From NCBI GenBank assembly GCA_016874005.1, contig VGVQ01000021.1, forward strand, positions 4,005 through 68,004: a stretch of 64,000 bases of DNA, given 5' to 3'. Positions 979 to 63,779 of the stretch are shown one piece after another. The notes under the pieces were generated by a model. The model was not told where the DNA came from. It searched no databases and saw nothing but the letters and a program-made list of their open reading frames with translations. Within the stretch, counting starts at the first letter, position 1; each line of letters opens with the position of its first letter. Source of the stretch: Gemmatimonadota bacterium. GTDB lineage: Bacteria > Gemmatimonadota > Gemmatimonadetes > Gemmatimonadales > GWC2-71-9. The position numbers were made by a program, and so were the translations under genes.

Positions 979-1926
979 TCAGATCTCCCAGTTCGAGAAG
1001 GTCACCGGCCCGTCGTCGCTGACGGGCGGCGGACTGGCCCGTTCCATCCGGAGGTCGGTCCACTGGACCCGAAACCCCAGTCCGATCAGATCGCGGTAAG
1101 CCCCCGCGTAGGCGCTCTGGCAACGAATCGCCACCCGCTCGACCCCGCGACGGGCCCCTTCGGCGAGCAAGGTCTCCGCCAGGAGTCGGAAGGCGCCCCG
1201 GTCGCGGGCCGCCAGTTTGAGCACCCTGAGCTCGGTGGTGGATCGGGAACTCGACAACGGCACCGCGTGCCACAGCGCCGCGGCCGTCCAGCGATCGCCG
1301 CCCACGGCGGTGAGATCGCCTAACGTCGACGCCAGGGTCAGCTCGGTCTCCCGACGGACGTCGAGGCCGGGCTCGACCTCGTTCACCAGGGCATGGAACC
1401 GGTCGGTCGCCATCCCGGCCTCCCGTCCCGCGAACCGCTGCCCGGCCCGCGGCGGTACCCCGTGCAGGTCCCGAACCATCGACACCGTGAGATGGCCCGG
1501 GGTGAAGCCGAGCCGGCTGTAGAACCCGATATTCTCGATGGCCCGCGGCATCGTCTCGAGGCCGATCCGCCGGCAGCCCGCGTGCTCGAGGTACTCCACC
1601 CCGGCCGCCACGATGGTCTGGCCGAGGCCCCGGCCCTGCCAGTCGGTCCGCACCGCGAGCGGGCCCATCCATCCCTCGACGCCGTTGGCGTGGCCCAGGT
1701 TGAACGCGGCAACGCCGGCGTCGTCGCGCCAAACCATCGCCCCCGGACCCGCGGCCGCGATCGCGAACCGCCACACGGCCGGGTTGAGCTCGGGGACGCG
1801 GACCCCGGTCATCCCGTCGCGGTGGTAGCGGTCGGTGAACGCGTCGGAGAAAACCCGATTGACCTCGTCGATGTCGCCCGCGACCAACTGCGAGCGGACC
1901 AGGGAGGCGACCTCAGGCAGCGGCAT
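979..1926 (-). CDS. GNAT family N-acetyltransferase (tandem GNAT fold)
   Basis: GPLAVRTDWQGRGLGQTIV acetyl-CoA binding motif A and NIGFYSRLGF motif B; overlaps the sbcC end by 14 nt. Confidence 0.8.
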   Translation of the reverse strand: MPLPEVASLVRSQLVAGDIDEVNRVFSDAFTDRYHRDGMTGVRVPELNPAVWRFAIAAAGPGAMVWRDDAGVAAFNLGHANGVEGWMGPLAVRTDWQGRGLGQTIVAAGVEYLEHAGCRRIGLETMPRAIENIGFYSRLGFTPGHLTVSMVRDLHGVPPRAGQRFAGREAGMATDRFHALVNEVEPGLDVRRETELTLASTLGDLTAVGGDRWTAAALWHAVPLSSSRSTTELRVLKLAARDRGAFRLLAETLLAEGARRGVERVAIRCQSAYAGAYRDLIGLGFRVQWTDLRMERASPPPVSDDGPVTFSNWEI

Positions 1927-4342
1927 GGGAATCGAACCCGGCCCGCGGCGTTTCCTCCCGCGCCGTCGCGATGCCCCGTTCCACGTCGTAGTCGATCCGG
2001 ATCGCCCGGTCGAACGAGTCGCGGACCGACTCGATGTGGGTGATCAGGATGACCTGGGGGAATCGGTCGGCCAGGCTTCGCAACAGGTCGATGACCGCTG
2101 AGCGTCGCTCGTCGTCCAACGAGCCGAACACCTCGTCGAGCACCAGGAGCGAGAATGGCTGCCCCGCCCGATCGGCGATCATCTGGCTGATCGCCAGCCG
2201 GAGCGCCAGGTTGGCGATGTCTTCTTCGCCGCCCGAGAGCACGGTCTTGGGCTCCCCGTCGTCGACGATCGATGGCTCGTAGTCCTCGGTGATCTCGAGA
2301 TCGCTGTAGCGGCCGGCGGTCAGGTCGCGCAGTAGAATCGAGGCCGCATCCGAGAGATCGGGCCGGAGCGCGGCGTTGAGATCGTCGCGGAGGTCGGTGA
2401 ATGCCCTGTCCAACTCGGTATTGAAGAGCACCTCGCCCTTGAGCCGCTCGATCTCCGCCATTCGAGCATCTCGCTCGGCGCGGCGTCGCGCCACCGCGGC
2501 GCGGTGTTCCTCCGCGGCCTTCCGCTCCCCGTCGGCCCGGACCTGGGTCACCTGCCCGGTTTGCCGAGCCCGCTCAGCCTCGTGGAAGGCGTCGCGCGCC
2601 GCGTCGTACGAGGCCGCCGACCACCCCAGCCCGACCAAACGCTCCTTCAGGGCCGCGACCTGCGCCTCCAGACGCGAGAGGTTCTGCTCCGCCTCGGCCG
2701 CCTTGGGCACCAGCGCCGCGGCCCGCTCCGCCAGGGCCGCGAGCCGGGCGACCTGGGTCCGCAGCGGCTCCAAGGCGAGTAATCGATCGCGGACCCGCTT
2801 GTGGGTCGTCTCGTCGTAACTGGTCGGCACCTCGGCGAGTTTCGCCTCGAGGTCCGCGGCTCTGGCCTCCGCCGCGGCTCGCTCCGCCGCCACCCGCTGG
2901 CGCTCGGCGATGCCGGCATCGGCTCGCACCACGGCGGCTTGGTCGGCTCGACCATCCGCCGTGGCCGCCTCGAGGGTGGATCGCGCCTTCGACAACTCGG
3001 CAGGCTCCGGGGTGAGCTGATCGAGCCGATGGCGATAGAAGCGGCCCTCCTGCATCACCTCGGCGAGCGATGTCTCGAGGTCATCGAGCACCTTATCGTA
3101 CTCCTTGCCGAGCGGCTTGCCACAGGTCGGGCAGACCACCGTCGGGCCGACCTCGCGCAGTCGCTTCAGCTGCTTTTCGAGGTCGTCGTGCTGTTTGAGG
3201 AGACTCGCCCGCTTGGTGGCGGCGTCCTGTTTCTCTCGAACCCATTCGGCTTGGAGGTCCTCGAGCGCCACCGTGGCGGCGGCGACCCGTTCGGCCGTCG
3301 CCGCCGACTTGGCGCGGGCGGCAGCCAGCTGCTCGACGTCAGGCAGCCTGGCGAGGCGTTGGTCGTGATTGGCCAGGGCGCTCTTCACTTCCTTGAGCTC
3401 GGCTTGGACCGCCCGCCGGCCCGCGAAGGCGAGGCTCTCGGCATCGAGCCGATCGCGCTGCGCGGCCAGGGCATCCCACTCGGCGAGCCCCGGGGCCAGC
3501 TCGTCGCGTTTGGCGGCGGCCGCCATCGCCTCGACCAGGTCGCGATCGAGCTCCTGAAAGGCTCGCCGGGCCTCGGTGGCCTGATGCTCGGCGATCTGGA
3601 GGTCGGTCTCCACCGCCTGAACGGTCTCCCGCCGCTTCTCCCACTCTTCCCAAACCGGGCGCCGCTCGGCGACGAGCCGCTCGGCCAGCTCGAGACCGGC
3701 CCGCGCTTCGGCCACCGCCCTGGTGGCGCCGGCGATCCGGACGGTCGCCGCCTGCTCTTCCTGATCGAGCGTCTCCCGATCGATCAAGCCGGTCTCGGCG
3801 GTGGCGAGCGAGGCCCGGAGGGCCGAGCGCTCCTCCTTGAGCCCGATCTGAACGGTGGCCAGCCGCTCGTAGCCGAGCACCCGACTCAGGAACCGGGCCC
3901 GATCCGCGGCGGTCATCGCGGCCATGAAGGCGAGTTCCTTCTGGCCGGTGAAATAGGTGTTGAAGAACTCGTCGCGGCTCATCCCGAAGAGCCGGGTCAC
4001 TTGGTCGGTGACGGCCCCGGCGCTGTTGGCGATCGGGGCGGCCTCGCCGTCGAGATAGAACACCGCGCTCTGGAGCGACCGGACGATCCGGTATCGCCGG
4101 GCGCCTAACGTGAAGTCCAGCTCGACTTCCACCCGGGAACGGGCCGGGGCCGAGCGCCGGCGGATGGTATCGCGAGTCCCTCGGGCGGCCTGGGTGCCGT
4201 ACATGGCCCACGCGATCGCCTCGAGCAGGGTTGTCTTCCCCGCCCCGTTCGGTCCGACGATGCCGGTGAGGCCGGGCCCGAACTGGAGCGTGGTGTCGGC
4301 GTGCTGGCGAAAGTTCTGGAGCCGAAGGCGGTCGAGTTGCAT
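1913..4342 (-). CDS. sbcC: SbcC/Rad50-like SMC ATPase
   Basis: True start MQLDRLRLQNFRQH at 4342 (TGATG overlap with sbcD). Walker A GPNGAGKTT, coiled coil with CPTCG zinc hook, LSGGE signature, Walker B LVLDEVFGSLD. Confidence 0.9.
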   Translation of the reverse strand: MQLDRLRLQNFRQHADTTLQFGPGLTGIVGPNGAGKTTLLEAIAWAMYGTQAARGTRDTIRRRSAPARSRVEVELDFTLGARRYRIVRSLQSAVFYLDGEAAPIANSAGAVTDQVTRLFGMSRDEFFNTYFTGQKELAFMAAMTAADRARFLSRVLGYERLATVQIGLKEERSALRASLATAETGLIDRETLDQEEQAATVRIAGATRAVAEARAGLELAERLVAERRPVWEEWEKRRETVQAVETDLQIAEHQATEARRAFQELDRDLVEAMAAAAKRDELAPGLAEWDALAAQRDRLDAESLAFAGRRAVQAELKEVKSALANHDQRLARLPDVEQLAAARAKSAATAERVAAATVALEDLQAEWVREKQDAATKRASLLKQHDDLEKQLKRLREVGPTVVCPTCGKPLGKEYDKVLDDLETSLAEVMQEGRFYRHRLDQLTPEPAELSKARSTLEAATADGRADQAAVVRADAGIAERQRVAAERAAAEARAADLEAKLAEVPTSYDETTHKRVRDRLLALEPLRTQVARLAALAERAAALVPKAAEAEQNLSRLEAQVAALKERLVGLGWSAASYDAARDAFHEAERARQTGQVTQVRADGERKAAEEHRAAVARRRAERDARMAEIERLKGEVLFNTELDRAFTDLRDDLNAALRPDLSDAASILLRDLTAGRYSDLEITEDYEPSIVDDGEPKTVLSGGEEDIANLALRLAISQMIADRAGQPFSLLVLDEVFGSLDDERRSAVIDLLRSLADRFPQVILITHIESVRDSFDRAIRIDYDVERGIATAREETPRAGFDSHAAA

Positions 4343-5620: not shown

Positions 5621-5859
5621 GAGCATCAAGGGGATCCACCGCGCCGGGGCCTGGCCGGTGATCTGTCGGAGCAGCCTAACGTCGGCCTACTTTCCGCGTC
5701 TGGCTCGAAGCCGAAGGTACCGCGTCGATCTCCGGCTCGGGTGCCGCCGAAGTGCCGCTTGCGTCCCCGGCGGATCGGCCCGTAATTACCATTTCGACAC
5801 GGGGACTCGTCCCTCCCCGGGTCCGACCTGACCCTCGCCCCTTCAGGGAACCCCGAATC

Positions 5860-7068: not shown

Positions 7069-8433
7069 ATGCCCAGACCCGATTCCGATCCCCCGCTCTC
7101 TGCCGAGGAGACCGAGTGCCTCCGCCGCGGGATCGACGAGGCGATGATCCGCTACGCCGGCGCCTTCACCCCGCTGATCGTCACCCGGGCCAGCGGGGCG
7201 GTGATGATCGACGAACGGGGCCGCCGGGTCCTCGACTTCACCTCTGGGCAGATGTGCGCGGTCCTGGGCCACAACCATCCCGACATCACCGCCGCGATCC
7301 ACCGGGCCACTCGGGAAGTGACCCACCTGCTCAGCACCATCCTCGCCCCCTCGGTGATCCGTCTCTGCCAGCGACTCGGGGCGCTGGTCCCGGATCCCCT
7401 CGCCAAGTCGATGCTGCTCAACACCGGCGCCGAGGCCAACGAAGCCGCGATTCGAATGGCCAAGCTCTTCACCGGCGGCTTCGAGGTCGTGAGCTTCGGA
7501 GGCTCGTGGCACGGGATGACCGGCGGCGCCTTCTCGAGCACCTTCTCGTTCGGGCGGCAGGGGTACGGTCCGCTGATGCCGGGAACCGGTGCGTTGCCGG
7601 CCCCCAACTGCTATCGCTGTCCGATCCGGCACTGCACCGACCGGTGCGACACCACCTGTCTCGAGGTGGGGTTCGAACTGATCGACCGGCAGACCACCGG
7701 CGCGCCGGCCGCGGTGATCGTGGAGCCGGTGTTGAGCGCGGCCGGCATCATCGACCTCGGGCCGGGCTACCTCGCGAAGCTCAAGACGATGGCCAACGAC
7801 CGCGGCTATCTCCTCATCCTCGACGAGGCTCAGACCGCCTTCGGGCGAGTGGGTGACCTGTTCGCTTTCGAGCGCGATGGGGTGCCGCCCGACATACTGA
7901 CCCTCTCGAAAACGTTAGGTGGTGGCCTCCCGCTCGCGGCCACGGTGACCAGCGCGGCGATCGAGGAGCGGTGCCACCAGGCGGGCTTCCTCTTCCTCAC
8001 CTCGCACGTCTCCGATCCCCTCCCGGCATACGTGGGGCTCGCGGTGCTCGAGATCATCGAGCGCGACCGGATCGTCGAACGGGCCCGGGAGACGGGCCGC
8101 TACCTCCGAGAGCAGCTCGAGGCGCTCCGGCGGGCCCACGAGTGCATCGGCGACGTTCGGGGCCGGGGCATGCTGCTCGGGATGGAGATCGTGCTCGATC
8201 GGGAGCGGAAAACCCCGGCGCCCGAGCTCGGTCACCAGATCATGGATCGGTGTCTCGAGCTGGGCTTGAGCATGAACATCGTCCGGCATCCCAAGGCGGG
8301 CAGCATCTTTCGGATCGCCCCGCCCCTCACCATCGAGCGACCCGAGGTGGACGAGGGTGTCGCCATCCTGGATCAGGCGATCGGCGAGTGCTGGCGCGCG
8401 GGCCAGTCCTCCGGGAGCAAATCGGGCGGCTGA
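7069..8433 (+). CDS. dgdA: 2,2-dialkylglycine decarboxylase-like class III PLP aminotransferase
   Basis: LDFTSGQMCAVLGHNHP, SWHGMTG, LILDEAQT, PDILTLSKTLG, SHVSDPLPA and LSMNIV...FRIAPPLT closely resemble DgdA as recalled. Confidence 0.75.
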   Translation: MPRPDSDPPLSAEETECLRRGIDEAMIRYAGAFTPLIVTRASGAVMIDERGRRVLDFTSGQMCAVLGHNHPDITAAIHRATREVTHLLSTILAPSVIRLCQRLGALVPDPLAKSMLLNTGAEANEAAIRMAKLFTGGFEVVSFGGSWHGMTGGAFSSTFSFGRQGYGPLMPGTGALPAPNCYRCPIRHCTDRCDTTCLEVGFELIDRQTTGAPAAVIVEPVLSAAGIIDLGPGYLAKLKTMANDRGYLLILDEAQTAFGRVGDLFAFERDGVPPDILTLSKTLGGGLPLAATVTSAAIEERCHQAGFLFLTSHVSDPLPAYVGLAVLEIIERDRIVERARETGRYLREQLEALRRAHECIGDVRGRGMLLGMEIVLDRERKTPAPELGHQIMDRCLELGLSMNIVRHPKAGSIFRIAPPLTIERPEVDEGVAILDQAIGECWRAGQSSGSKSGG

Positions 8434-9080
8434 TGTCGCGGGTCGCCCTGATTCACGCCTTGATCGAGTCGATCGGCCCGATCTCCGAGGAGATCGATCG
8501 GTCCTGGCCCGACTGCGACCGGTTTCACCTTCTCGACGACTCGCTGTCGCGCGATCGCGCCCGGCAGCCGGGACCGCTCGACCAGGCGATGACCGACCGG
8601 TTTCAGCGGCTGGCGGACCATGCGGTGGCTTCGGGCGCCGGCGCGATCCTCTTCACTTGCTCGGCGTTCGGGCCCTGCATCGACGCGGTGGCCCGCCGAT
8701 TGGCCCCGATGGCGGTCTTCAAGCCGAACCAGGCGATGATCGCCGACGCCGTGGCGACCGGCGGACCGATCGGCCTCGTCGCCACCTTTGGCCCCACCCT
8801 CGAATCGATGATCGGCGAGTTTCCGGCCGGGGTCGCCGTCCATGCCAGGCTCGCGGACGGGGCACTCGAGGCGCTTCGAGCCGGCGATCCCCACCGGCAC
8901 GACCGACTGATCGCCGAAGCCGCCCGCGACCTGGTGGAGCGCCACCAGGTCGCGACGATCGCCCTGGCCCAGTTCACCATGGCCCGGGCGGGGCCGGCGG
9001 TAGCCGCTCTGGTGACCCGGCCCGTGCTGACCACGCCGGCGAGCGCGGTCAGGGCGCTGCGAGACCGGCTGGGCGCCTAA
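8433..9080 (+). CDS. Asp/Glu/hydantoin racemase superfamily protein
   Basis: ILFTCSAFG and IALAQFTMA motifs; TGATG overlap with dgdA. Confidence 0.7.
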   Translation: MSRVALIHALIESIGPISEEIDRSWPDCDRFHLLDDSLSRDRARQPGPLDQAMTDRFQRLADHAVASGAGAILFTCSAFGPCIDAVARRLAPMAVFKPNQAMIADAVATGGPIGLVATFGPTLESMIGEFPAGVAVHARLADGALEALRAGDPHRHDRLIAEAARDLVERHQVATIALAQFTMARAGPAVAALVTRPVLTTPASAVRALRDRLGA

Positions 9081-10081
9081 CGGCCTGCCCGGACCTGCTC
9101 GACCACCCGGCGGACCGCGGCGATCACCAGATCGGGCCGGTCCCGCTGAACGTAATGACTCGCGTCCGGGATGATCTGGTGCTCGCTTCGACTCGACCAC
9201 CCGGCCTGCTCTACCTGCAGCGCGGTCCAAATCGCCTGGAACTTCCGGCCCTGTTCCGCCGTCATCTCGATCTGCGCCAAGGTAGCGGCGTCGAGCGGGG
9301 CCGCGGCGGTCAACACCGCCAGCGGCCGCTCGCCTAACGCTCGCGCCTCGCCGGCCTGCGCCATCGTCTCGGACATCGCCCGCGCCTCGGCGATCATCGG
9401 TCCCATCGAGGTTGCCGCGTAGGCCGCCGTCGCCCGCCGGACCGATTCGGGGATCGCCCCGTTGGTGTCGGTCGGCATCACCGCCCGGGCCAGACCGGTC
9501 CACGCCAGGGCCGCCAGCACCTTGAGGGAACCGAGCGGGGGCTCCATTTCCTTCCCGGTGGCCTCCGCCAACCGGGCGACTTGGTCGGGGTGCGAGGCGT
9601 CGACGAAGACCAACCCGGCGACCTTGTCAGGAAACCGTTTGGTGTAGACGCTGATGTATGGCCCACCCAGCGAGTGACCCACCATCACGTAGGGACCGGC
9701 TTCGCCGGCCGCCGTCAAGGCGGCGTCGAGGTCGGCGGCGACCGCGGTCGCGTGGCGCGGTTGTGGTCCGGGATCGCTCCACATGATCCCGGCCCGACTG
9801 TAGCCGCAGGTACGGGTGGTCGCGGCGATCGAATCGTGGACCGCGGCCCAGGCCAGCGATCCGTTCATGTCGAGCCCAGCCTCCAGCACCACGATCGGCG
9901 TTCCGCTGCCACGACAGTCGAGGTGAAGCCGGCGACCTCCGATGTCGACCAGCCGGCCCGGCGGTGGATGGTCCGTCGCGGCTCGACCCCTGGCCACCCG
10001 CTCCGCGATGGCACCGAGCAGCGCGGCGACGACGATGAGCCCGAGGAGGCCGAGTCCGATTCGTTTGAGCCAAGTTCGCAT
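9077..10081 (-). CDS. alpha/beta hydrolase with N-terminal membrane anchor
   Basis: Start MRTWLKRIGLGLLG at 10081; LHLDCRGSG, VGHSLGG nucleophile elbow, ASHYVQ. Confidence 0.85.
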   Translation of the reverse strand: MRTWLKRIGLGLLGLIVVAALLGAIAERVARGRAATDHPPPGRLVDIGGRRLHLDCRGSGTPIVVLEAGLDMNGSLAWAAVHDSIAATTRTCGYSRAGIMWSDPGPQPRHATAVAADLDAALTAAGEAGPYVMVGHSLGGPYISVYTKRFPDKVAGLVFVDASHPDQVARLAEATGKEMEPPLGSLKVLAALAWTGLARAVMPTDTNGAIPESVRRATAAYAATSMGPMIAEARAMSETMAQAGEARALGERPLAVLTAAAPLDAATLAQIEMTAEQGRKFQAIWTALQVEQAGWSSRSEHQIIPDASHYVQRDRPDLVIAAVRRVVEQVRAGR

Positions 10082-10646: not shown

Positions 10647-12437
10647 GTGGCGGCCCGGAACCGCCGTCGCGGCTACCTCAGGGAGTACCTCCGGTGGCTG
10701 GCGCCCCACCGCTACGCGGTCGCCGGGCTTTTCCTGCTCGCCCTCCTCGTCGCCGCGTTCCAGATGGTCGAACCGCTCTTCATGCGGTTCATCGTCGATC
10801 GGGTCCTGCTCGACCCGGACCTCGACCCGGCGAGGCGGCTCCGGCTGCTCCACCTGGCGGGGGCCACCTTCGTGACGTTGGTCGTCCTCTCGAACGTCGT
10901 GGCCGTCATTCGCGACTACCGCCAGCGACTGCTGAACGCCCGGGTAATGCTCAGTCTCAGGCGGGCGCTGTTCGGGCGGCTGCTTCACCTCCCCCTCCCC
11001 AAGCTCTGGGACATGAAGACCGGGGGGATCCTCTCGCGAATCACCGGAGATGTCGACACCACCACGGGCCTGCTCCAACTCGCCATCGTGTCGCCCGCCC
11101 TCTCGGTGATTCGCCTCCTGATCGCGATCGGGGTCCTGCTGGCACTCAACTGGCGACTGGCCCTCACCGCGCTCGCGATCGTTCCCGGCATCGCGGTCAT
11201 CAGCGTGCTGTTCTCCCGGCGGATCCGGCCCATCTACCGTTCGCTCCGAAAGGACGTGGAGCACATCGACGGCCGGGTCGGCGAAACCTTCTCGGGAATC
11301 CGAGTCGTCCGCGCCTTTCGGGGGGAGCTTCGTGAGCTGTTCGATTTCCTGGTGGGTCGCCATACGGTCATCCGCAAGGAACTGTTCGCCCAACGGCGCG
11401 AAATGGTGATCTGGGCCTCCTGGGGCCTGTTGCTCGGGGCGGTGAACGTCGTGATCCTCTGGTATGGCGGCTACCTGAACCTGGTCGGCCGGGCCTCGGT
11501 GGGCGACATCATGGCGTTCCAGTGGTACACCTTCCTGCTGCTCAATCCCGTGTGGCAGATCGTCAACTCCTTTTCCGAGTTGCAGCGATCGCTCGCGGCG
11601 ACCGAGCGGGTGTTCGAGATCCTCGCGATGCCGGATGACAAGCCGGACCGCCCGGGCGCGCTGCCCGCACCGGCGGCCGTGCGGGAGATCGTCCTCGACC
11701 GGGTGGGATTCGAGTACCGCGAGGGAGTCCCCGTCGTCCGTGACGTGTCGGCCACGGTCCCCGCCGGGACGGTGGTGGCGCTGGTGGGACGAAGCGGCGC
11801 CGGAAAAACCACCGTGACCGACCTGGTGGCGCGGTTCCACGATCCGACCGAGGGCCGGATCCTGGTCAACGGCACCGACATCCGCGACCTCCAGTTGGCC
11901 AGCTATCGCGATCTCGTGGCCATCGTTCAGCAGGATGTCTTCTTGTTCGACGGGTCGGTGCGTGACAACATCGCCTACGGCCGTCACGGCGCCACCAAAG
12001 ACGAGGTCGTCGCGGCCGCGGTGCGGGCCAACGCCGACGAGTTCATCAGGTCGTTGCCGGAGGGGTACGACACCTTCATCGGTGAGCGCGGCGTCAAGCT
12101 GTCCGGGGGGCAGTGCCAGCGGCTCGCGATCGCGCGGGCCTTCCTCGCCGACCCGCAGATCCTGATCCTCGACGAGGCGACCAGCAACCTCGACACCGAG
12201 AGCGAGCAGGCGATCCAGGCGGCCATGGCGAGCCTCCTGGCCGGCCGCACCACCTTCATCATCGCGCACCGGTTGTCCACGGTTCGCCGCGCCGACCTGA
12301 TCCTCCTGCTCGACGGCGGCCGAGTGATCGAGCGGGGGACCCACGAGGCACTGATGGCCCTTGGCGGCCAATACGCCCGGATGGTTCGCCGACAAGCCGA
12401 CTCGGCGGGCCTCGATGCGGCGTTCAGCGACGCCTAA
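10647..12437 (+). CDS. ABC exporter, fused permease and ATP-binding domains
   Basis: TM domain, then GRSGAGKTT, LSGGQCQR, ILILDEATSNLD, IAHRLST. Confidence 0.9.
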   Translation: MAARNRRRGYLREYLRWLAPHRYAVAGLFLLALLVAAFQMVEPLFMRFIVDRVLLDPDLDPARRLRLLHLAGATFVTLVVLSNVVAVIRDYRQRLLNARVMLSLRRALFGRLLHLPLPKLWDMKTGGILSRITGDVDTTTGLLQLAIVSPALSVIRLLIAIGVLLALNWRLALTALAIVPGIAVISVLFSRRIRPIYRSLRKDVEHIDGRVGETFSGIRVVRAFRGELRELFDFLVGRHTVIRKELFAQRREMVIWASWGLLLGAVNVVILWYGGYLNLVGRASVGDIMAFQWYTFLLLNPVWQIVNSFSELQRSLAATERVFEILAMPDDKPDRPGALPAPAAVREIVLDRVGFEYREGVPVVRDVSATVPAGTVVALVGRSGAGKTTVTDLVARFHDPTEGRILVNGTDIRDLQLASYRDLVAIVQQDVFLFDGSVRDNIAYGRHGATKDEVVAAAVRANADEFIRSLPEGYDTFIGERGVKLSGGQCQRLAIARAFLADPQILILDEATSNLDTESEQAIQAAMASLLAGRTTFIIAHRLSTVRRADLILLLDGGRVIERGTHEALMALGGQYARMVRRQADSAGLDAAFSDA

Positions 12438-42148: not shown

Positions 42149-42159
42149 CGTCTCCTCCG

Positions 42160-42894
42160 TTAGGCGTTCTTGATGACGGTCAAGTGGGTCGGGGCGACGC
42201 CGCCAAAGCGACGCTCGCGGGTCCGGAACTCGTGAAGCACCTCCGCGAGATCGCCCGGGCGGAAGTCCGGCCACAACTCGCGCCGGAAAAACAGCTCGGC
42301 GTAGGCGGCCTCCCACAACAGGAAGTCGCTCAACCGCTGGTCCCCGCCAGTTCGAATCAGCACGTCGACTGGCTCCACTGGCCCGCGGCCGTGATCCACC
42401 TCGGCGACCAAGCGCCCGAATCCGTCGAGATCGATGTCGGCGGCGCCCGTTGCCGCCAGGCGAACCGCGGCCCGGCGGATGGCATCCCGGCCCGAGTAGT
42501 CGATCGCGACCCGGAGCCTGAGCCCCCGAGCCCGCTCGGTAACCCGTTCGGCATCCTCGACGGTGGCACGAAGCGGCGCCGGCAATCGGTCCCGGCGGCC
42601 GACGACCTCGAGCGAGACGTCGGCGGCCGCCAGCCGAGCCGATTCGTCGAGCAGATCGCGCCGGAACAGTTGCAGCAGCGCGGACACCTCCGGGAGGGGT
42701 CGCTGCCAATTGTCCGAGGAGAACGCGTAGAGGGTGAGGGTTCCGATACCGAGGCCGCTCGCCACCTCGACGATCCGGCGGACGGTGGTCGCCCCGGCAC
42801 GGTGGCCCGCCGCCCTGGGGAGGCCGCGGCGTTCGGCCCAGCGACCATTGCCGTCCATGATGATCCCGACGTGGAGCCGTGAATTACTTTGCAT
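42160..42894 (-). CDS. uppS: cis-prenyltransferase (undecaprenyl/decaprenyl diphosphate synthase family)
   Basis: IIMDGNGRWA, LYAFSSDNW.R, LIRTGG.QRLSDFLLW and RRFGG motifs. Confidence 0.92.
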   Translation of the reverse strand: MQSNSRLHVGIIMDGNGRWAERRGLPRAAGHRAGATTVRRIVEVASGLGIGTLTLYAFSSDNWQRPLPEVSALLQLFRRDLLDESARLAAADVSLEVVGRRDRLPAPLRATVEDAERVTERARGLRLRVAIDYSGRDAIRRAAVRLAATGAADIDLDGFGRLVAEVDHGRGPVEPVDVLIRTGGDQRLSDFLLWEAAYAELFFRRELWPDFRPGDLAEVLHEFRTRERRFGGVAPTHLTVIKNA

Positions 42895-50977: not shown

Positions 50978-51147
50978 TGGGAGAAACACCGACGAGCAAA
51001 GGGACAGCCGGAATCTACTCAGGCCACTCACCCACAGCGAACCGGTCGGCCGGTCGGCGTCGAGCGGGTGAAGTCGGATCCCGTCGATCCAGACGCCTCG
51101 ATCGCGCCCGATACCGGCAACCCGGCGCAAGCGGGTAGATTCCCTTG

Positions 51148-54100
51148 GTGCCCGTCCGGTTCCCGTTCCTCGCCCTCTTGGCAGTCGCTGTCGGAAGTTG
51201 CTCCTCGACCCCGGCCGACGCCCCCCTCGTGTGGCAGGTTGGCCCCGGTTATCGCTGGCGCCCGGTGGATCCGGGAGATGGCAAGCCAGGATTCACTCGG
51301 CTCGACCCGTCGGCGACCGGGATCACCTTCGCCAATCAACTCAGCGACAGCGCGGCCCTGAGGAACCAAATCCTCGCCCAGGGTGGCGGGGTGGCGATGG
51401 CGGACATCGACGGCGACGGCCGAACCGACCTGTTCTTGGTCCGGACCGAGGGCCCGAGCGCCTTGTACCGGAACCTCGGCGGGTTTCGTTTCAGCGAGGT
51501 GGCGACGGACGCCGGCGTGGCATTGGGCGACCGGCCGGCGACCGGGGCGGCCTTCGCCGACGTCGACGGCGATGGCGATCAGGACCTCTTGGTCAACGCG
51601 CTAGGCGGCCCCAACGCCTTGTTTCTCAACGACGGGCGGGGTCGGTTCACCGAGGACAGTAGCTACCCCGGGCGGCGCTCCCAGGCGGGAACCACCACCA
51701 GCACCCTGGCCGACATCGACGGTGACGGCGACCTCGACCTCTACCAGGCCAACGACAAGGCCTACAATGCCAAGGATCTCTTCACCCCGCAGGAACTGGC
51801 TTTCGACCAAGCCGTTCGGCAGACCGGACCGCGTCAATTCGAGGTCGTCGAGCGACTCCGGAAGGACTATCGGGTCGACCTCCGTGACGACATCGGTGGG
51901 GTGGTCCTGGTCCAACGAGCCGACCCCGACTCGCTCTACCTGAACGACGGCCGGGGCCGGTTCACCGCCGTGCCGATCGCCAACTCGGCGCGCTTTCTCG
52001 ACGAAGCTGGCCGACCCTTCACCACGCCGCCCGACAATTTCACCCTGGTGGCCCGGTTCTACGACCTCGACGGCGATGGCGACCCGGACCTCTACGTCGC
52101 CAACGACTTCGAGGACCCTGATCAACTCTGGCTCAACGACGGGCGAGGCAACTTCCAGCTCGCCCCCAAACTGGCCCAACGGAACACCAGCAACGCCGCC
52201 ATGGCCGTCGACATGGCCGACGTCGACCGCGACGGCGCCACCGACCTGTTCGCGGTGGACATGCTGAGCCGCGACAGCCGCCAGCTCAAGACCCAGATCC
52301 CCACCCACACCCCATTGCCGAAGCGTCCGGGCGTCATCGACGACCGGCCCCAGCTCCAACGGAACACCCTCTTCCTGAGCCGGGGCGATGGCAGCTACGC
52401 CCAGGTCGCCGAACACGCCGGAGTCGACGCGAGCGGCTGGTCGTGGTCGACGATGTTCCTCGACGTCGACCTCGACGGTTACGAAGACCTTCTGATCGGA
52501 ACCGGGAACCGGTGGGACTTCATGGATGCCGACACCCAGGAGCGGTATCGTAACCGATTGTCGGACCTGGATTCGCGGCAGCAGCGGATGACCTTGCCCC
52601 GTCTCGAAGTGCCTAACTACGCCTTTCGCAACCGGGGTGACCTCACCTTCGAAGACCTCAGCGAGGCTTGGGGTTTCTCGGCCGGCCCCGACCTGAGCCA
52701 CGGCATGGCCGCGGGCGACCTGGACGGCGACGGCGACCTCGATGTCGTCGTCAACCGCCTCGGCGCGCCAGCGCTGGTGCTGCGCAACGACGGTGGGGCG
52801 GGCCGGATCATGATCCAGCTGGCCGGCGAGGCGCCGAACACCGCGGGTATCGGGGCTCGAGTCACCGTGACCGGCGGCCCGGTGCCATCCCAGAGCCGCG
52901 AGGTGACCGCGGGCGGAATGTACTTATCCCATTCCGATCCGGGCCTCACCTTCGCGACCGGCTCGGCAAGCACGGTCGCCGTCGAGGTGCGCTGGCGGGA
53001 CGGCAGGGTCTCGACGATCGCCGACGCCGTGCCGAATCGGATCTACCAGATCGACCAGGCGAACGCGACCCGCCGCCCCTCGGTGTCAGTCGGCAAGGCG
53101 CCGGCACCGCTCTTCGCCGATCGGACCGCCGAGCTGGGCCATTCCCACCTGGAGACCTCGGTGGCGCCTCGGCAGCCGCTGCTGCCCCACTCCTTCTCCG
53201 AGCTGGGGCCTGGGGTGAGCTGGCTCGACCTCGACTCCGACGGCGACGACGACCTGATCATCGGGACTGGGAGCGGCGACCGGCTGGCCGGGTATCGCAA
53301 CGATCGCGGCAGGCTCATCCCGTTCGACCTCGGACTGCCTCCAGCTGACGCGGATCTCACCAGCATCCTCGCCGTCCCCGACGGACGGGGCGGGCTCCGC
53401 CTCCTCGTCGCCCAAAGCAATTACGAGAGCGACTCGCTGGCGACCTCAGTCGCCTTGCCCTCCGTGCTGGGGGTTCCGCTCGACCGGACTGGCCGTCGTG
53501 CCGGGCCCATCGAGGCCGCCATTCCCGGCGACACCGCCACCGTCGGCCCGCTGGCCTTGGCCGACTACGACGGCGACGGCGACCTCGACCTGTTCGTCGG
53601 TGGCCGGGTGATTCCGGGCGGCTACCCGCTGTCGCCGTCGAGTCGCCTGTTCACCAACGACGGCACCGGACGCTTCTCCTTGGATTTGGCCAACAGCGCC
53701 GTCCTTCGAAGCACCGGCATGGTCAGCGCCGCCCTGTTCGCCGACCTCGACGGCGACCGCGACCCCGATCTCGCCTACACCACCGACTGGGGCCCACTCA
53801 AGGTGCTCATCAACACCGGGGGCCGGTTCGCCGCCGCGACCGAGACGTTAGGCTTCACCTCCCGGTTCGGCCGCTGGTGGGGTCTGGCGTCGGGCGACTT
53901 CGATGGCGACGACCGGATCGACCTGGTGGTCACCGGCTTCGGGACCAACGTCCGACCTCGGGCCGACTCGACGTTACCCCTCTACCTCTACTTCGGTGCC
54001 GTCGATGACGACGGCGGCCTCGACCTGCTGCTGGCCCAACACGACCCCCGGCTCGGTGCCATCGCGCCGCTGGAGAGTTACGCGACCCTGAGCCGCGCCA

Positions 54101-55063: not shown

Positions 55064-56872
55064 GTGCGCCTCGGATCGACCGTTCGTTCGCTGATCCTGG
55101 CTCTGGGAGCCGGCCTCGCCATCGGGGCCGCCGAAGTGTTGCTGGTCCAGGTGGCCCTTCGCGGTGGCGTCAACGTCCGCTTGAGCGCCGACTACGTCTG
55201 GATGGCGCCGCTCGCCAACGTGGTCGTGGCGGTGGGCCTGGTGGCCGGGCTGCTGCTCGCGGCCAGGTTCAAGACCGGCTGGGATCCCGCTGGGGCGATC
55301 GTCGCGACGCTCACGGCGCTCGGCATCACCTCCATCGCCTTCTACTACGAATCGCTCCACAAGGCGGCGGTCCTCCTCCTGGCCGCCGGCCTCGGGTCGC
55401 AAGCCGCCCGCCTGGCCCGGGTCCCAGCCCTTCGCCGCTGGTTCGCCCTGGTGCCGGTGACCACGGTCGCTCTGGCGGGGTGGATTGGGATCACCTCGGC
55501 CCGGCTCGTCGGATCCACGGCTCGGCAGGAGGCAACCACGATCGCCGGGCTGCCCAGCCCGCCGGCGGGAGCCCCCAACGTCCTGCTGCTGGTGCTCGAC
55601 ACGGTTAGGCGCCTGAGGTCGTACTCCGGCCTCGACTCGTCGGCGGCGACACCGGCCTTGGACGCGTTCGCGGCGCGAGGGACCTCGTTCGACCTCGCCA
55701 TCGCGCCGGCGCCATGGACGCTGCCGTCCCACGCCAGCTTCTTCACCGGCCGGTTGCCGATCGAGTTGTCGACGAGCCTGTCTGACCCACTCGACGATCG
55801 TTACCCCACCCTGGCCGAATTTCTCGCCGCCCGGGGATACCTGACGGCCGGATTCGTGGGGAACTTGAGTTTCGCGACCCGCTCGAGCGGCCTCGCTCGG
55901 GGCTTCGCGTACTACCGCGACTACGACCGGTCGGTTGGTCAAATCGCCCTCAGCTCGAGCCTCGGACGCGCGGTGCTGGGAGCGGGCTGGATCCGACGGA
56001 CGCTCGGTAATCACGAACTGGCCAATCGCCGCCATGCCCGCGACGTGGTCAGCGAGTTCCTGGCCTGGCATGACGGACATCGGCACCGGCCTTTTTTCGC
56101 TTTCCTCAACCTCTTCGACGGGCACGAACCGTACTTTCCCGAGGGCCGGTCCGGATCGAGCCTGTGGCCGGGGGCCCGCTGGACGAACTACGAGCACGTG
56201 GTGGGCCTCGAGGCCGGCGCCAACGCGGAGGTCGCCGACAAACGGAGCCTGACAGCCGACCAGGCCGCCATTCACGAGCAGGCGTACCTTCGAGCGGCGG
56301 CGACGGCCGCGAGCGAGGCGGCCGCGATGCTCGGTGAATTGGAACGCCGAGGGGCGCTCGACAATACCATTGTGGTGATTGTATCGGACCACGGCGAACA
56401 GACCGGCCAGCACCGGCTCTTCGGGCACCTCAACAGCCTCTACCTCCCGGCGGTGCACGTGCCCCTCGCGATCGTGGGGCCCAACGTCGGTCGCGGCGTG
56501 CGGGTCCGGCACGCCGTCGGTCTCAACGATTTGCCGGTCACTATCGCCCAGTTGGCCGGGGCGCTCGACTCACCGTTCCCGGGGCGATCACTCCTCGACA
56601 CCACCGAGGCCAACCGGGTGCCGGTCGTTTCGATGCTCGAGGGCGGCTATCAAAAGCAGGCGGGCTACCCAATTGGCCAAGGGCGGGAGATGTTCGCGCT
56701 GACCACCACCGGTCACCGATACATCCGCAACGCGGACGGATCGGAAGAGCTGTTCGACCTGCGCGATGGCGTTGCTGAAGCCAGCAATCGCGCAAGCGCC
56801 CCCGGCTACGCCGCTATTCTCGCGGCCCTCCGGCTCCAATTGGATTCGATTATCCGCTCGAGTCGGCCATAG
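55064..56872 (+). CDS. Membrane-anchored sulfatase-like (AlkP superfamily) hydrolase or transferase
   Basis: N-terminal TM helices, then LLVLDTVR, APWTLPSHASFFTG, VSDHGE and HVPL motifs. Confidence 0.8.
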   Translation: MRLGSTVRSLILALGAGLAIGAAEVLLVQVALRGGVNVRLSADYVWMAPLANVVVAVGLVAGLLLAARFKTGWDPAGAIVATLTALGITSIAFYYESLHKAAVLLLAAGLGSQAARLARVPALRRWFALVPVTTVALAGWIGITSARLVGSTARQEATTIAGLPSPPAGAPNVLLLVLDTVRRLRSYSGLDSSAATPALDAFAARGTSFDLAIAPAPWTLPSHASFFTGRLPIELSTSLSDPLDDRYPTLAEFLAARGYLTAGFVGNLSFATRSSGLARGFAYYRDYDRSVGQIALSSSLGRAVLGAGWIRRTLGNHELANRRHARDVVSEFLAWHDGHRHRPFFAFLNLFDGHEPYFPEGRSGSSLWPGARWTNYEHVVGLEAGANAEVADKRSLTADQAAIHEQAYLRAAATAASEAAAMLGELERRGALDNTIVVIVSDHGEQTGQHRLFGHLNSLYLPAVHVPLAIVGPNVGRGVRVRHAVGLNDLPVTIAQLAGALDSPFPGRSLLDTTEANRVPVVSMLEGGYQKQAGYPIGQGREMFALTTTGHRYIRNADGSEELFDLRDGVAEASNRASAPGYAAILAALRLQLDSIIRSSRP

Positions 56873-56962: not shown

Positions 56963-56992
56963 CTACCGGCGCCTACCGGCGCCTACCGGCGC
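56963..56992. repeat. 10-bp tandem repeat, 3 copies, containing the susD stop codon
   Basis: CTACCGGCGC at 56963, 56973 and 56983. Confidence 0.9.
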
Positions 56993-58704
56993 CGACGGCT
57001 GGTCTGCTTCTGCTGCTTTTCAATCTCCGCCCAGATTTCCCGGACGTTCTTCACGTTGCCAACGAGTGGATTGACCGATGGCGCGGCGCCGCCTGGATTG
57101 GTCGGCCCACCGAACGAGTAGATCTCGGCCCGGAGCAATTGGAGGTCCTTGGCCGGAACCGGCATCTGACGCGGAGTGTCCGGCCACATGCGGTTGTACG
57201 CCTCCGGCAACACGACTTGCGCCGAGGAGGTGTAACGCCGACGGTTGAAGTACGGAGCCGGCGCGGTCTCGTACAGGCCAACTTCCTGCTCATAGATGAG
57301 CGCGCGCAGCAAGGCTTGGGTGCCCTCGCCGCCGGTCAAGGCGGGGAGGCCGCCTTTTCCGACTCGACTGTTGTTGATCTTTTCCGCCGCAAGGGTGGCC
57401 GAGCCGTTGGTGCGGAGCAGGGCCTCCGCCCACAACAGGTCGTTGAAGACCTTCGAGTACACCGGAATCGGTCCTTCGCCGGTGGGGCAGTCGTCGTAGT
57501 ACGCCGAGAGACAGTGCTCGCGAACGTAGCCCATATTGCTCTGGTGGAACGAGCCGCGGCCCGGGATGAAGATTGCCAGGGGCGACCAAGCGAAATCGGT
57601 CCCCGAGTTCGGGGTTGCTTTGCAGCCGCCGTTTCCGAGGTAATCGTCTTCTGGACCGAAGCATCCGTCACCGACCCGCCGATCGAGGCCGTAGATACCG
57701 GCGTTAGGCTGCGGGTTCCCGTTGCCGCCGGGCCAGGGGTCAATCTGGTTGGTGGCGAAAAGGCGAGCCACCCGAGTATCGACCCGGACCGTCGTGTAGT
57801 CGTTTGCCCAGCGGTGATAGCCAGTGAAGAAATCGCCGTTCTGATCTTGGTACGCCTCGAAGTTGAACGCCGGCGCGTTGACCGCCGAACTGACGCCTTG
57901 GGAGGCGTAGGTCAGCACCTGTCCCCAATTGACCTGAGCGTTTTCTTCCGAGTTGCGCGGATAGTGCGCCAACAACTCGGCCTGCATGGTCCGGATTGCC
58001 TTGGCCAACTGCTTACTGGTGTAGACCGGGCCGGTTGGTACCCCGAACCAGGTCGCGCCGGTGCTGAAGGTCTTGGTATTCGCCAGCGTGTAGGCGGCCT
58101 CGAGCATCGTCATGGCCGCATCACGGATCGCCCCGCGGGGCTGCAATTGCAACGCGAGGACGTCGGTGTCTTCCTTGACCACGAAGCCCTGGTCGTAATT
58201 GAGCGCGATGAACGCGTGGGCAATACCCTGCGCCATCTGCGAGATCGTCTCGACCGCGTCCTTCTGGGCGCCCAGATCGGGCGGACTCGACGACTTACGG
58301 ATGGCGAAGAGGGCGTCGTTCGCGGACGACAGCAGGGAGTACATGCCGTACCAGTAGGGCTCGACCTGCTGGCCCAACTGGGTCGAGGTGCTGTTCACCC
58401 AGGCGCAGCGATTGGCGCAGTCGACGCCGTAGGACGAATAGTACCGTGAGTTGAAGTTGTTCCACGAGAACGACGTGTGGTCCGCCATGGCCGCGAGCGT
58501 GAGCGACGGGCTATAGGCGTACTTGGTGTTCATCCACGTCTTCATGGTGCCCGCCGCCGACGCGACGATCGTGGCGGGGTCGGAGAAGGCGCGCTCGCGT
58601 TCCGGCGCGTTCGGGTTGGTGACGTCGAGTTCACCGCAGGCGGCGAGTGGCCCGAGCAGGGCCACCGCCGCGAGGGCGAACCATCGGTTGGTCTTTCGAG
58701 TCAT
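56983..58704 (-). CDS. susD: SusD/RagB-like surface lipoprotein
   Basis: Start MTRKTNRWFALAAVALLGPLAAC.ELDVTNPN; LLWAEALLR, INNSRVGKGGL and QMPVP SusD-like C-terminal motifs; directly after susC. Confidence 0.75.
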   Translation of the reverse strand: MTRKTNRWFALAAVALLGPLAACGELDVTNPNAPERERAFSDPATIVASAAGTMKTWMNTKYAYSPSLTLAAMADHTSFSWNNFNSRYYSSYGVDCANRCAWVNSTSTQLGQQVEPYWYGMYSLLSSANDALFAIRKSSSPPDLGAQKDAVETISQMAQGIAHAFIALNYDQGFVVKEDTDVLALQLQPRGAIRDAAMTMLEAAYTLANTKTFSTGATWFGVPTGPVYTSKQLAKAIRTMQAELLAHYPRNSEENAQVNWGQVLTYASQGVSSAVNAPAFNFEAYQDQNGDFFTGYHRWANDYTTVRVDTRVARLFATNQIDPWPGGNGNPQPNAGIYGLDRRVGDGCFGPEDDYLGNGGCKATPNSGTDFAWSPLAIFIPGRGSFHQSNMGYVREHCLSAYYDDCPTGEGPIPVYSKVFNDLLWAEALLRTNGSATLAAEKINNSRVGKGGLPALTGGEGTQALLRALIYEQEVGLYETAPAPYFNRRRYTSSAQVVLPEAYNRMWPDTPRQMPVPAKDLQLLRAEIYSFGGPTNPGGAAPSVNPLVGNVKNVREIWAEIEKQQKQTSRRRR

Positions 58705-63290: not shown

Positions 63291-63760
63291 CCCGAAGCCC
63301 GGCGAGCCATGGCGGCCTGATCGCCGCCCTTCTGATTGCCGGGCTCGGCTGCGGCGGAAGCCCGCCGTACCCTGTCACCCCGACGGCGTCCGACGCCCGC
63401 GCCCTGATCGCCGCGGGCCCGAGCCGCAACGTGGCCGTCACCTCGCCCGATCCCGCGACGCCCCTTCAACCTTTGATCGTCCCGCTCCCGTTCGCCGCCG
63501 CCCGGGACTCCCTCGCCGCCCTGATCCGACACCTGCCCCGATGGTCCGTCGCCGGCGCCACCGACTCGGTCGTCTGGGCCACCCGGACTACCCGGCTGTT
63601 TCGCTTCGTGGACGACGTCCTCCTCCTCTTGGAACCCCTCGGCGATTCGACCAGGGTACACGGCCGAAGCGGGTCGCGAGTCGGGAAGGGCGACATGGGG
63701 CAGAATCGAAGGAATCTGGCCGAACTGCGGGACGCCCTCGCCGAGGGCCGCAACCGTTAG
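63263..63760 (+). CDS. DUF1499 family lipoprotein; start uncertain
   Basis: LIAGLGC lipobox; TRLFRFVDDV and RSGSRVGKGDMGQNRR motifs. Confidence 0.7.
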   Translation: MVEEPTLQVARSPASHGGLIAALLIAGLGCGGSPPYPVTPTASDARALIAAGPSRNVAVTSPDPATPLQPLIVPLPFAAARDSLAALIRHLPRWSVAGATDSVVWATRTTRLFRFVDDVLLLLEPLGDSTRVHGRSGSRVGKGDMGQNRRNLAELRDALAEGRNR

Positions 63761-63779
63761 GCGGCGCCTGGTCCGGCGA

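Follow-up and report, generated by a model that had tools for sequence, protein, structure and literature searches.

The octamer and its copies in the window

The window, that is, the whole 64,000-nt stretch of DNA analysed, belongs to the 97% complete genome (G000) of a Gemmatimonadaceae soil bacterium and contains 18 exact copies of the octamer CGTTAGGC, 10 on the + strand and 8 on the − strand. The word differs from its own reverse complement and is thus non-palindromic. Ten of the exact copies form an in-frame NCG-TTA-GGC, five overlap with a stop codon, one runs antisense to its gene (CCT-AAC) and two lie between genes.

Exact copies of CGTTAGGC
1318..1325, −, in-frame ACG-TTA-GGC (Thr-Leu-Gly), GNAT acetyltransferase gene 979-1926(−)
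4103..4110, −, ACG-TTA-GGC, sbcC-like gene 1913-4342(−)
5674..5681, −, intergenic, between sbcD-like gene 4342-5529 and epimerase gene 5860-7008
9075..9082, −, TAA of racemase-like gene 8388-9080(+) and TAG of hydrolase gene 9077-10081(−), convergent
9332..9339, −, GCG-TTA-GGC (Ala-Leu-Gly), hydrolase gene 9077-10081(−)
19505..19512, −, CCG-TTA-GGC, GMC oxidoreductase gene 18776-20233(−)
21433..21440, +, ACG-TTA-GGC, phosphodiesterase gene 21141-22700(+)
22381..22388, +, GCG-TTA-GGC, phosphodiesterase gene 21141-22700(+)
28979..28986, +, ACG-TTA-GGC, DbpA-domain gene 28399-29808(+)
32420..32427, +, CCG-TTA-GGC at the conserved VPLGY motif, gcvP 31612-34455(+)
34450..34457, −, TAA stop of gcvP (GCC-TAA-CG)
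36946..36953, +, TAG stop, solute-binding protein gene 35236-36951(+)
41576..41583, −, ACG-TTA-GGC by the 3′ end, gene 41570-42148(−)
42158..42165, +, TAA stop, uppS-like gene 42160-42894(−)
44424..44431, +, intergenic, between genes 43993-44397 and 44483-45826
53846..53853, +, ACG-TTA-GGC, FG-GAP/ASPIC gene 51145-54855(+)
57702..57709, +, antisense with respect to gene 56983-58704(−), where it reads G-CCT-AAC-G (Pro-Asn)
63755..63762, +, TAG stop, DUF1499 gene 63263-63760(+)

7-mer copies (deviating letter in lower case)
7913..7919, +, CGTTAGGt, ACG-TTA-GGT, aminotransferase gene
16926..16932, +, CGTTAGGt, ACG-TTA-GGT, peptidase S15 gene
35174..35180, −, CGTTAGGt, antisense CCT-AAC, lipoate ligase gene
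35230..35236, −, CGTTAGGg, antisense CTA-ACG
49279..49285, −, CGTTAGGt, GCG-TTA-GGT, FG-GAP gene 45843-49529(−)
12432..12438, −, gGTTAGGC, TAA and TAG of convergent genes 10647-12437(+) and 12434-15136(−)
52611..52617, −, aGTTAGGC, antisense CCT-AAC
55604..55610, +, gGTTAGGC, the sole copy read as GTT-AGG (Val-Arg)

The preliminary description had located all of these correctly, both the 18 exact copies and the five CGTTAGG and three GTTAGGC 7-mers, and had recognized the five stop-supplying copies, the double stops given to convergent genes at 9075 and 12432 and the copy inside a conserved GcvP motif; the in-frame Leu(TTA)-Gly(GGC) pattern that it described is also present, but in 10 copies rather than 11.

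Dinucleotide shuffling of the window leads one to expect 0.88 copies (maximum 5 over 100 shuffles) and an order-3 Markov model 0.75, while codon shuffling of its 47 gene calls gives 0.22 in either orientation, where 10 copies are sense and 1 is antisense. The enrichment also extends beyond the window: the genome carries 779 copies in 3.88 Mb (201 per Mb, about one per 5 kb), compared to 195 copies of the reversed word, a density about 33 times the family background (most relatives have about 6 per Mb, and most genomes of the family 1–17 per Mb). The over-representation of CGTTAGGC, at 20–30 times chance, is thus real and genome-wide, and no description of the word was found in the literature searched, as had been surmised.

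All 30 occurrences of TTAGG in the window, where TTAG totals only 38, are preceded by G, and 14 of its 21 TTA codons stand in the context G-TTA-GG, a preference that the preliminary description had proposed to look for. One-off variants of the octamer are enriched at the two end positions only; CGTTAGGC is a DNA word spread across the genome, strict in its six-base GTTAGG core and softer at the ends. Among 100 genome-wide copies there is no base preference at −1 and none in the 5′ flank; on the 3′ side, the 18 window copies have G or T at +1 and never C, and the flank is purine-rich around the word in Verrucomicrobia. No conserved sequence surrounds the copies, their spacing is not evener than random (CV 0.89 versus 0.99 for random placement, P = 0.16), and no inverted pairs of the core occur within 300 bp of each other in the window.

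Imposition on coding sequence at the level of DNA

A codon alignment of 30 gcvP orthologues, taken from word-rich and word-poor genomes, bears out the earlier claim of a protein-independent signal laid over coding sequence. Word-rich genomes have CCG-TTA-GGC, ACG-TTA-GGC or, with the word on the other strand, CAG-CCT-AAC-GCC, where word-poor genomes encode the same residues with CTC/CTG and CCC/CCG; at the VPLGY site, nine word-rich genomes carry the word as 8-mer or 7-mer and the word-poor ones have CTC/CTG/ATG. The same sites acquired the word independently in other genera and families, and at one site four genomes each gained an antisense CCT-AAC copy on their own. TTA accounts for 15 of 1025 Leu codons in word-rich gcvP, 14 of them within the word core, versus 1 of 1069 in word-poor gcvP.

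Because 10 of the 11 exact copies within coding sequences of the window have the sense orientation and share a single reading frame, and because so many of its TTA codons lie inside the core, the word could be taken for a TTA codon read in a fixed context in mRNA; such an RNA- or translation-level signal is hardly credible and is refuted by the antisense copies, which are as frequent as sense ones per coding opportunity, outnumber them at the Verrucomicrobia loci (22 versus 11) and arose repeatedly in gcvP, as well as by the copies in spacers. Once coding opportunity is counted, the apparent sense bias vanishes (40 sense copies per 109 opportunities and 16 antisense per 44 in 100 genome-wide contexts, Fisher P = 1.0): the in-frame TTA-GGC pattern follows from the peptides able to carry the word and is not a translational property. 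CGTTAGGC thus works at the level of DNA rather than through RNA or protein, and the strand of its copies follows gene orientation because of codability.

Distribution across genomes and a phage

The word had been thought lineage-specific. It is instead patchy within the order, the family and even one genus, and it is shared with a clade of Verrucomicrobia, which it saturates as the 9-mer TCGTTAGGC (up to 877 per Mb); the extra 5′ T of this form is the only dialect seen. No alternative word turned up in word-poor relatives, in 12–23 kb samples of loci. Moreover, in a tailed-phage contig the word reaches the density of the host, with copies inside the terminase and portal genes. The patchy spread of a word that is letter-identical in two phyla suggests that its candidate reader is itself horizontally mobile.

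A candidate tag for DNA exchange

We tentatively favour the view that CGTTAGGC is maintained by a molecular drive of the uptake or recombination type, comparable to that of the DNA uptake sequences DUS and USS, with a reader that is probably mobile. Such drive through uptake has been demonstrated for DUS in Neisseriaceae (GCCGTCTGAA core, read by the minor pilin ComP) and for USS in Pasteurellaceae (AAGTGCGGT core, with helically phased AT-rich flanks), where the words extend through the whole family and pass down vertically, DUS with dialects. In our case the word would be held at high copy number by some step of DNA exchange that is sequence-specific, most likely natural transformation that prefers word-bearing DNA for uptake; word-less alleles would then be replaced by homologous recombination, and the word would build up wherever coding permits: as NCG-TTA-GGC in sense [S/P/T/A]-Leu-Gly, on the other strand as CCT-AAC in Pro-Asn or CTA-ACG in [C/R/S/G]-Leu-Thr, and outside peptides in TAG/TAA stop codons and spacers. 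Directly observed are the enrichment, its orientation-neutral imposition on DNA, the lack of polarity, the phylogenetic pattern and ComEC itself; the uptake or recombination step is what we infer. Homologous recombination, probably via competence, is reported to be common in abundant soil bacteria (PMC7305173).

Like DUS and USS, the word is short, non-palindromic and over-represented tens of times, occurs in both orientations, in spacers and in genes despite the cost of a rare codon, and has a strict core with softer flanks and no conserved surroundings; the competence channel ComEC is present in all 54 genomes tested, the source genome among them, word-rich and word-poor alike, so that its presence does not separate the two. 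Unlike them, the word is patchy within a genus, absent from most of its family and identical in a second phylum; it shows neither the frequent terminator-type inverted pairs of DUS, none of which occur in the window, nor a spacing evener than random, as in USS, and no replacement dialect appears in the samples from word-poor relatives, all of which count against drive. A ComP-type pilin (PF16732) gave no match at E ≤ 0.01 in the source genome or in 12 word-rich congeners, so that a DUS receptor of this family is not supported as reader there; beyond these genomes only weak sub-threshold pilin matches were found. Pure transformation drive accounts for the word-bearing phage contig only if the phage is temperate.

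Overall, the behaviour of CGTTAGGC appears most like that of the self tags of bacteria that import their own DNA. To our knowledge, sequence-specific self tags linked to a function are established in two proteobacterial families only, those of DUS and USS, while the present word occurs in two abundant, mostly uncultured soil phyla. If uptake specificity proves true, preferential import of "own" DNA would shape soil genomes; and, the word being identical across phyla and patchy within them, its reader should be findable by gene-presence association.

Alternative readings

A less probable possibility is that the word serves inside the cell, either as a mark of self, for instance by which a nuclease or defence system spares word-bearing DNA, or as the binding site of a nucleoid protein, with selection instead of uptake drive sustaining the copies. 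The phage contig, whose structural genes bear the word as densely as the host does, would fit this, as phages carry host Chi similarly, and the patchy cross-phylum distribution suits a mobile, defence-like gene set; in Verrucomicrobia, moreover, the two hyper-rich genomes lack RecB/AddAB-type nucleases, which 7 of 7 poor ones have (P = 0.03). In Gemmatimonadales, however, the presence of AddAB is unrelated to the word, the search yielded no candidate reader, end-resection signals come with a polarity that is missing here, and selection per copy would be very weak across hundreds to thousands of copies.

A tie to integrons, with a candidate uptake or recombination reader tuned to the attC core for cassette capture or with copies used by an IntI-type recombinase in the manner of attG, is likewise doubtful. 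GTTAGGC/GCCTAAC matches exactly the published consensus of the integron core, GTTRRRY with the inverse core RYYYAAC (PMC3053210), which occurs in the R′ and R″ boxes of attC, in attI and in attG. In the same lineages, attC sites beside intI read GCCTAACG(A)...GTTAGGC, including the word's extra base or two, in word-rich and word-poor genomes alike; these local attC sites carry the same 8–9 letters as the word. The integron integrase (TIGR02249) is above cut-off in 34 of the 54 genomes versus 0 of 14 controls, and single-stranded DNA acquired through transformation is a source of cassettes for integrons (PMC12614218). Yet intI does not track word density (14 of 20 rich versus 16 of 27 poor genomes, P = 0.55), being absent from word-rich G014, G026, G080 and G098 and a partial, sub-threshold match in the source genome (253.8 bits versus a cut-off of 265), and IntI proteins are more alike inside a phylum (79% identity in Verrucomicrobia) than across phyla (52–57%); the integrase is thus unsupported as driver. 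Cassette open reading frames often end within the R″ box, and TAA and TAG inside the boxes likewise terminate genes in the window. Integron sites consist of paired R″/R′ and L boxes that fold into an attC hairpin, or of an attI next to intI. The genome-wide copies, in contrast, occur singly within housekeeping genes, and neither a partner or L box nor a hairpin accompanies them; insertion at those within essential genes would do harm, and the match in spelling could be a post-hoc coincidence (an estimated 10–20%, roughly, after allowing for many known motifs).

As for the spelling itself, an equally doubtful but far-reaching conjecture is that the word equals the attC/attI core since its reader was selected for cassette DNA: a mobile uptake or recombination specificity that scavenges cassettes from donors of any phylum would drive the word through the host genome and resident phages as a by-product. 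The shared spelling would then bear on cassette capture and connect it with natural transformation and with a "common tag" shared across phyla of soil bacteria.

A HIP1-like drive by methylation-directed repair, in which a methyltransferase would mark the GTTAGG core and methyl-directed mismatch correction would convert near-matches, is improbable. HIP1 (GCGATCGC) is a palindromic octamer of cyanobacteria whose one-letter deviants fall mainly at its two ends; alternate HIPs exist, and HIPs co-occur with cognate methyltransferases. CGTTAGGC shares with it hyper-abundance through synonymous sites, patchiness among relatives and deviants at the ends around a strict six-base core, but it is not palindromic, and the methylation-driven signal suggested earlier lacks candidate enzymes in the three main families: the 97% complete source genome has no match to C5, N4/N6-beta or N6-gamma methyltransferases (PF00145, PF01555 and PF02384). 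PF00145 is also absent from most word-rich genomes, PF01555 from G014, G019 and G064, and PF02384 from G014, G026 and G090. In a control scan of cyanobacterial loci, HIP1 behaved as expected.

Finally, a polar signal such as Chi (GCTGGTGG in E. coli), marking recombination hotspots and recognized by RecBCD or AddAB, or KOPS (GGGNAGGG), orienting FtsK, is very improbable and largely refuted: the word resembles Chi as an octamer found about once per 5 kb, a frequency similar to that of Chi in E. coli, and also found in phage, but the strand polarity that had been suggested as a check does not appear, since the 39 + and 50 − copies along a 333-kb contig stretch are intermingled, with both halves alike, the window's own 10 + and 8 − copies lie under uniformly negative GC skew, and strand follows codability. 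As for the AddAB/RecBCD genes named alongside, the nuclease domain PF12705 (RecB/AddA/AddB/AdnAB) is absent from the source genome and from 13 of 17 rich Gemmatimonadales, an order in which AddAB does not track the word.

The density of the word is a strong compositional marker for metagenome binning and phage–host assignment in these lineages.

The word is a free-standing octamer in excess throughout the genome

The 18 exact copies of the word CGTTAGGC counted by hand in the preliminary description are all present in the window where they were reported, 10 on the plus and 8 on the minus strand, as are the 7-mers listed with them. This number compares with a mean of 0.88, and never more than 5, in dinucleotide-preserving shuffles and with 0.75 expected under an order-3 Markov model; where a codon-preserving null, made by shuffling synonymous codons among genes, predicts 0.22 copies in each orientation, the window has 10 in sense and 1 in antisense. 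No conserved flanks were found around the 18 copies, whose surroundings are unrelated, so that the word stands free and no longer repeat is involved. TTAG occurs 38 times in the window and TTAGG 30 times, always as GTTAGG; 23 of these 30 extend to CGTTAGG, 21 to GTTAGGC and 18 to the full word, which indicates a strict GTTAGG core with two softer end positions. Palindromes of the window, namely CGATATCG (9 sites), CCAATTGG (5) and TTGGCCAA (5), stand 4–6 times above order-3 expectation.

The enrichment reaches beyond the window (contig 21, positions 4005–68004), since the 3.88 Mb assembly from which it comes (49 contigs, 97% complete) holds 779 copies, compared to 195 of a reversed-word control. 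A 9-mer, ACGTTAGGC, hinted at by 10 of the 18 window copies, was dropped because the −1 position shows no preference among 100 genome-wide copies (A 23, C 24, G 33, T 20); the seeming ACG preference of the window was sampling noise.

A codon model, fitted to the window itself, called 47 genes. Their Pfam identities are ordinary and mutually unrelated, and include sbcCD, gcvH/gcvP, thymidine kinase, coaE, uppS, a sulfatase, an Opp-type ABC transporter, FG-GAP/ASPIC proteins and a TonB-dependent receptor. The copies fall as follows.

Window copies of the word relative to called genes
Sense: 10/18, in the single frame NCG-TTA-GGC, encoding [T/A/P]-Leu-Gly
Antisense: 1/18, read as CCT-AAC
Overlapping a stop codon: 5/18
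Intergenic: 2/18

The TTA-GGC frame noticed earlier thus stands, although its 11 copies become 10 on recounting. Gene calls bear out the five stop-codon overlaps, and the word at 9075 and a 7-mer at 12432 each end both genes of a convergent pair. TTA codons are concentrated in the core, with 14 of the 21 found among about 20,000 window codons reading G-TTA-GG. Separately, ARAGORN predicted a 92-nt tRNA-Gly(GCC) at 28101–28192 on the minus strand, within a called DUF2784 gene (27909–28319); this call is doubtful, as an Rfam scan of the window at gathering thresholds found no tRNA.

Copies are blind to replication and transcription

Polarity of the Chi or KOPS type, raised in the preliminary description, is not borne out: the first 333 kb of contig 1 carry 39 plus-strand and 50 minus-strand copies in short mixed runs, with a similar ratio in either half, and the window (69% G+C) mixes 10 and 8 while its GC skew is uniformly negative from end to end. 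These mixed strands rule out a KOPS-like polarity and make a Chi-like one very unlikely, and with the RecB/AddAB nuclease domain absent from the window's genome (G000), a function as Chi or KOPS is highly improbable. Even spacing of the copies was not detectable (the gaps have a coefficient of variation of 0.89, where random placement gives 0.99; P = 0.16), and the window contains no inverted word pairs within 300 bp.

Orientation was assessed on 100 genome-wide copies, each taken with 76 upstream bases (pattern padded with N) and assigned a frame by codon model. Confident calls comprised 38 NCG-TTA-GGC and 2 GTT-AGG in sense, 9 CTA-ACG and 7 CCT-AAC in antisense, and 6 TAG stops. Normalised by the peptides of the window proteome able to carry the word synonymously (67, 42, 32 and 12 opportunities for the four frames, respectively), copies occur at an equal rate in sense (40/109) and antisense (16/44; Fisher P = 1.0). 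This normalisation by coding opportunity is new here. The sole avoided frame is GTT-AGG, for which two disfavoured codons are needed. Among the peptides able to carry the word Leu-Gly is the most common, which is the only reason why the strand of a copy and gene orientation go together. A signal on the sense strand or in translation was dropped on the evidence of these contexts together with the gcvP alignment and the Verrucomicrobia loci described below; an RNA-level signal, suggested by the sense bias of the window alone, is hardly credible given the equal antisense rate per opportunity.

Word density is patchy across the order and shapes gcvP codons

A survey of 81 genomes of the order, of the kind proposed in the preliminary description, found word-rich and word-poor genomes patchily mixed. 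Most species of the window's genus have 100–330 copies per Mb and four have only 30–46, while densities in almost every other genus of the family are 1–17 (median near 6). High density reappears in one more genus of the same family (genome G026) and, outside that family, in several genomes from two others of the order, including G064 (187 per Mb) and G060 and G080 (about 100–120 per Mb). Word-poor relatives contain no replacement dialect in samples of 12–23 kb, an observation that is also new here.

In a codon alignment of gcvP from 30 genomes of the order, the VPLGY motif is written CCG-TTA-GG(C/T) in 9 word-rich genomes and CCG/CCC-CTC/CTG/ATG-GGN in word-poor ones. KTLGY reads ACG/GCG-TTA-GGC in five rich genomes, and LQPNA reads CAG-CCT-AAC-GCC, the word on the other strand, in four genomes (one from another genus), its proline codon being CCC or CCG in all remaining sequences. 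Another Leu-Gly is written CCG-TTA-GGC in the gcvP of a genome from family 3. Of 1025 gcvP leucine codons in rich genomes 15 are TTA, and 14 of these 15 belong to the word core; poor genomes have a single TTA among 1069. As the aligned GcvP proteins are only 70–84% identical, synonymous sites are saturated, so that an active process, and not inheritance, accounts for the shared copies.

Some word-poor genomes show local same-strand runs of the word with spacings of about 400–960 bp (G031, contig C3, 996–7711; G024, contig C15, 8588–11333; G041, 63 plus and 2 minus; G070, 61 plus and 14 minus), probably owing to tandem protein-domain repeats or imported DNA. Window positions 21132–32644 are matched at 100% identity by DNA assembled from five further public samples (Logan/ENA contigs L229–L233, from SRR7990526, SRR16108669, SRR16108670, ERZ27247963 and SRR7053297), so the strain recurs across samples; beyond these, protein identity of GcvP falls to 83% in the nearest remaining relative.

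The same word fills a Verrucomicrobia clade and marks a phage

Among 80 gcvP loci returned from other genomes, mostly of other phyla, three from Verrucomicrobia stood out.

Word copies at Verrucomicrobia gcvP loci
Chthoniobacterales MAG contig: 18 copies in 12.6 kb
Uncultured Verrucomicrobiae MAG contig: 15 copies in 22.8 kb
Third Verrucomicrobia locus: 4 copies

Genome-wide totals for the three are 2544 copies (2.9 Mb), 2595 (4.5 Mb) and 294 (2.9 Mb), and seven other Verrucomicrobia genomes have 11–69 apiece. On a gcvP tree these three cluster as a single Verrucomicrobia clade distant from Gemmatimonadota, which excludes both mis-binning and transfer of gcvP. In 41 of 47 copies here a T occupies −1, which makes the word the 9-mer TCGTTAGGC, and the 3' flank is rich in purines; the variants TCGTTAGGG and TCGTCAGGC are also enriched in the clade, and antisense copies (22) exceed sense copies (11) at its loci. 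Being shared with this clade and patchy within its own order, the signal is not the lineage-specific one that had been supposed. Over Gemmatimonadales and Verrucomicrobia together, about 20 rich and more than 60 poor genomes were recognised.

Scans of viral contigs for pairs of the 9-mer returned mostly chance-level matches, two tandem repeats and one dense IMG/VR contig (16 copies in 13.9 kb). The latter encodes a large terminase, portal, major head protein, holin and repressor-like regulator, and word copies occupy the usual frames inside its terminase and portal genes and are found at gene ends as well. Tandem repetition of a 17-bp unit (CGTACCTACTCGTTAGG) gives six occurrences of the 9-mer in two IMG/VR contigs (L130 and L142); it is a chance carrier with no relation to the dispersed word.

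Mechanism and candidate readers

Any process that explains these facts must operate on the DNA sequence itself, irrespective of the direction of transcription and replication. It must proceed through point substitutions wherever a site tolerates them, be gained or lost as fast as species of one genus separate, have the same specificity in two phyla and mark at least one phage as well. To our knowledge, the one mechanism of such a kind with experimental proof is uptake-biased transformation combined with molecular drive, and for this reason we rank it first, as a tentative choice that fits imperfectly with the patchy distribution, with a word identical across phyla and with copies in a phage. 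Its reader would not be of the ComP type and would probably have been transferred horizontally. The word might instead be a putative intracellular self-mark or binding site, which we consider unlikely; the residual probability goes to mechanisms not yet imagined. Searches of full-text papers on the word, and on uptake sequences or competence in the phylum, turned up no earlier description, in line with the preliminary one.

Candidate readers were compared between rich and poor genomes of both phyla, in 54 genomes or an 18-genome subset. ComEC (PF03772), which is necessary for uptake, was dropped as a discriminator, being present in 54 of 54 genomes. ComP_DUS (PF16732) has no match in G000 or in any rich genome of its genus; this and the negative results for three methyltransferase families, RecB/AddAB and the integron integrase IntI are new here.

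A specificity linked to integrons is about as unlikely as a self-mark. GTTAGGC/GCCTAAC spells an integron core site, whose documented consensus is GTTRRRY/RYYYAAC (PMC3053210), and attC sites adjoining intI carry the same letters (GCCTAACG(A)...GTTAGGC) in rich and poor genomes alike. Integron integrase (TIGR02249) scores above the curated cut-off in 34 of 54 genomes and 0 of 14 controls, some of the 34 holding two or three copies, and these soil lineages of Gemmatimonadales and Verrucomicrobia appear unusually rich in integrons. However, its presence is independent of word density (14 of 20 rich and 16 of 27 poor genomes, P = 0.55), it is missing from several rich genomes, with only a partial, sub-threshold match in G000, and IntI similarity tracks phylum, with no cross-phylum clade. 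IntI was thus rejected as the driver; the spelling is either coincidental or a hint at the target for whose recognition the reader was selected.

Less probable still is a HIP1-like drive by methyl-directed repair, since C5 (PF00145), N4/N6 (PF01555) and N6 (PF02384) methyltransferases all lack a match in G000. The first is also absent from most rich genomes, the second from G014, G019 and G064, and the third from G014, G026 and G090. The C5, beta and gamma enzymes were accordingly dropped as readers, and the methylation-driven signal suggested earlier finds no support from these families.

RecB/AddAB was dropped as a reader because its nuclease domain (PF12705) is absent from G000; it is also absent from 13 of 17 rich Gemmatimonadales and does not track word density there. 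In Verrucomicrobia it occurs in neither of two hyper-rich genomes (G090, G093) and in all seven poor ones (G094, G107, G109, G114–G117; P = 0.03, small sample). In place of a PD-(D/E)XK domain of RecB/AddAB type, G000 has sbcCD and a herA/nurA-like pair.

Other hyper-abundant words emerged from a k-mer scan of gcvP loci of other phyla (L083, Cytophagales SYC-11; L033, Oscillatoria princeps; L108; L104; L046). CCTCCCGC occurs 14 times in 23 kb against 0.1 expected, and CATCGGGC, CAGGGTGA and AGTCGACT 10–11 times apiece. TGCCGGCA and CACCGGCA, found 22–23 times in 16 kb, may represent an alternate HIP; HIP1 itself was recovered, as expected, in other cyanobacterial gcvP loci.
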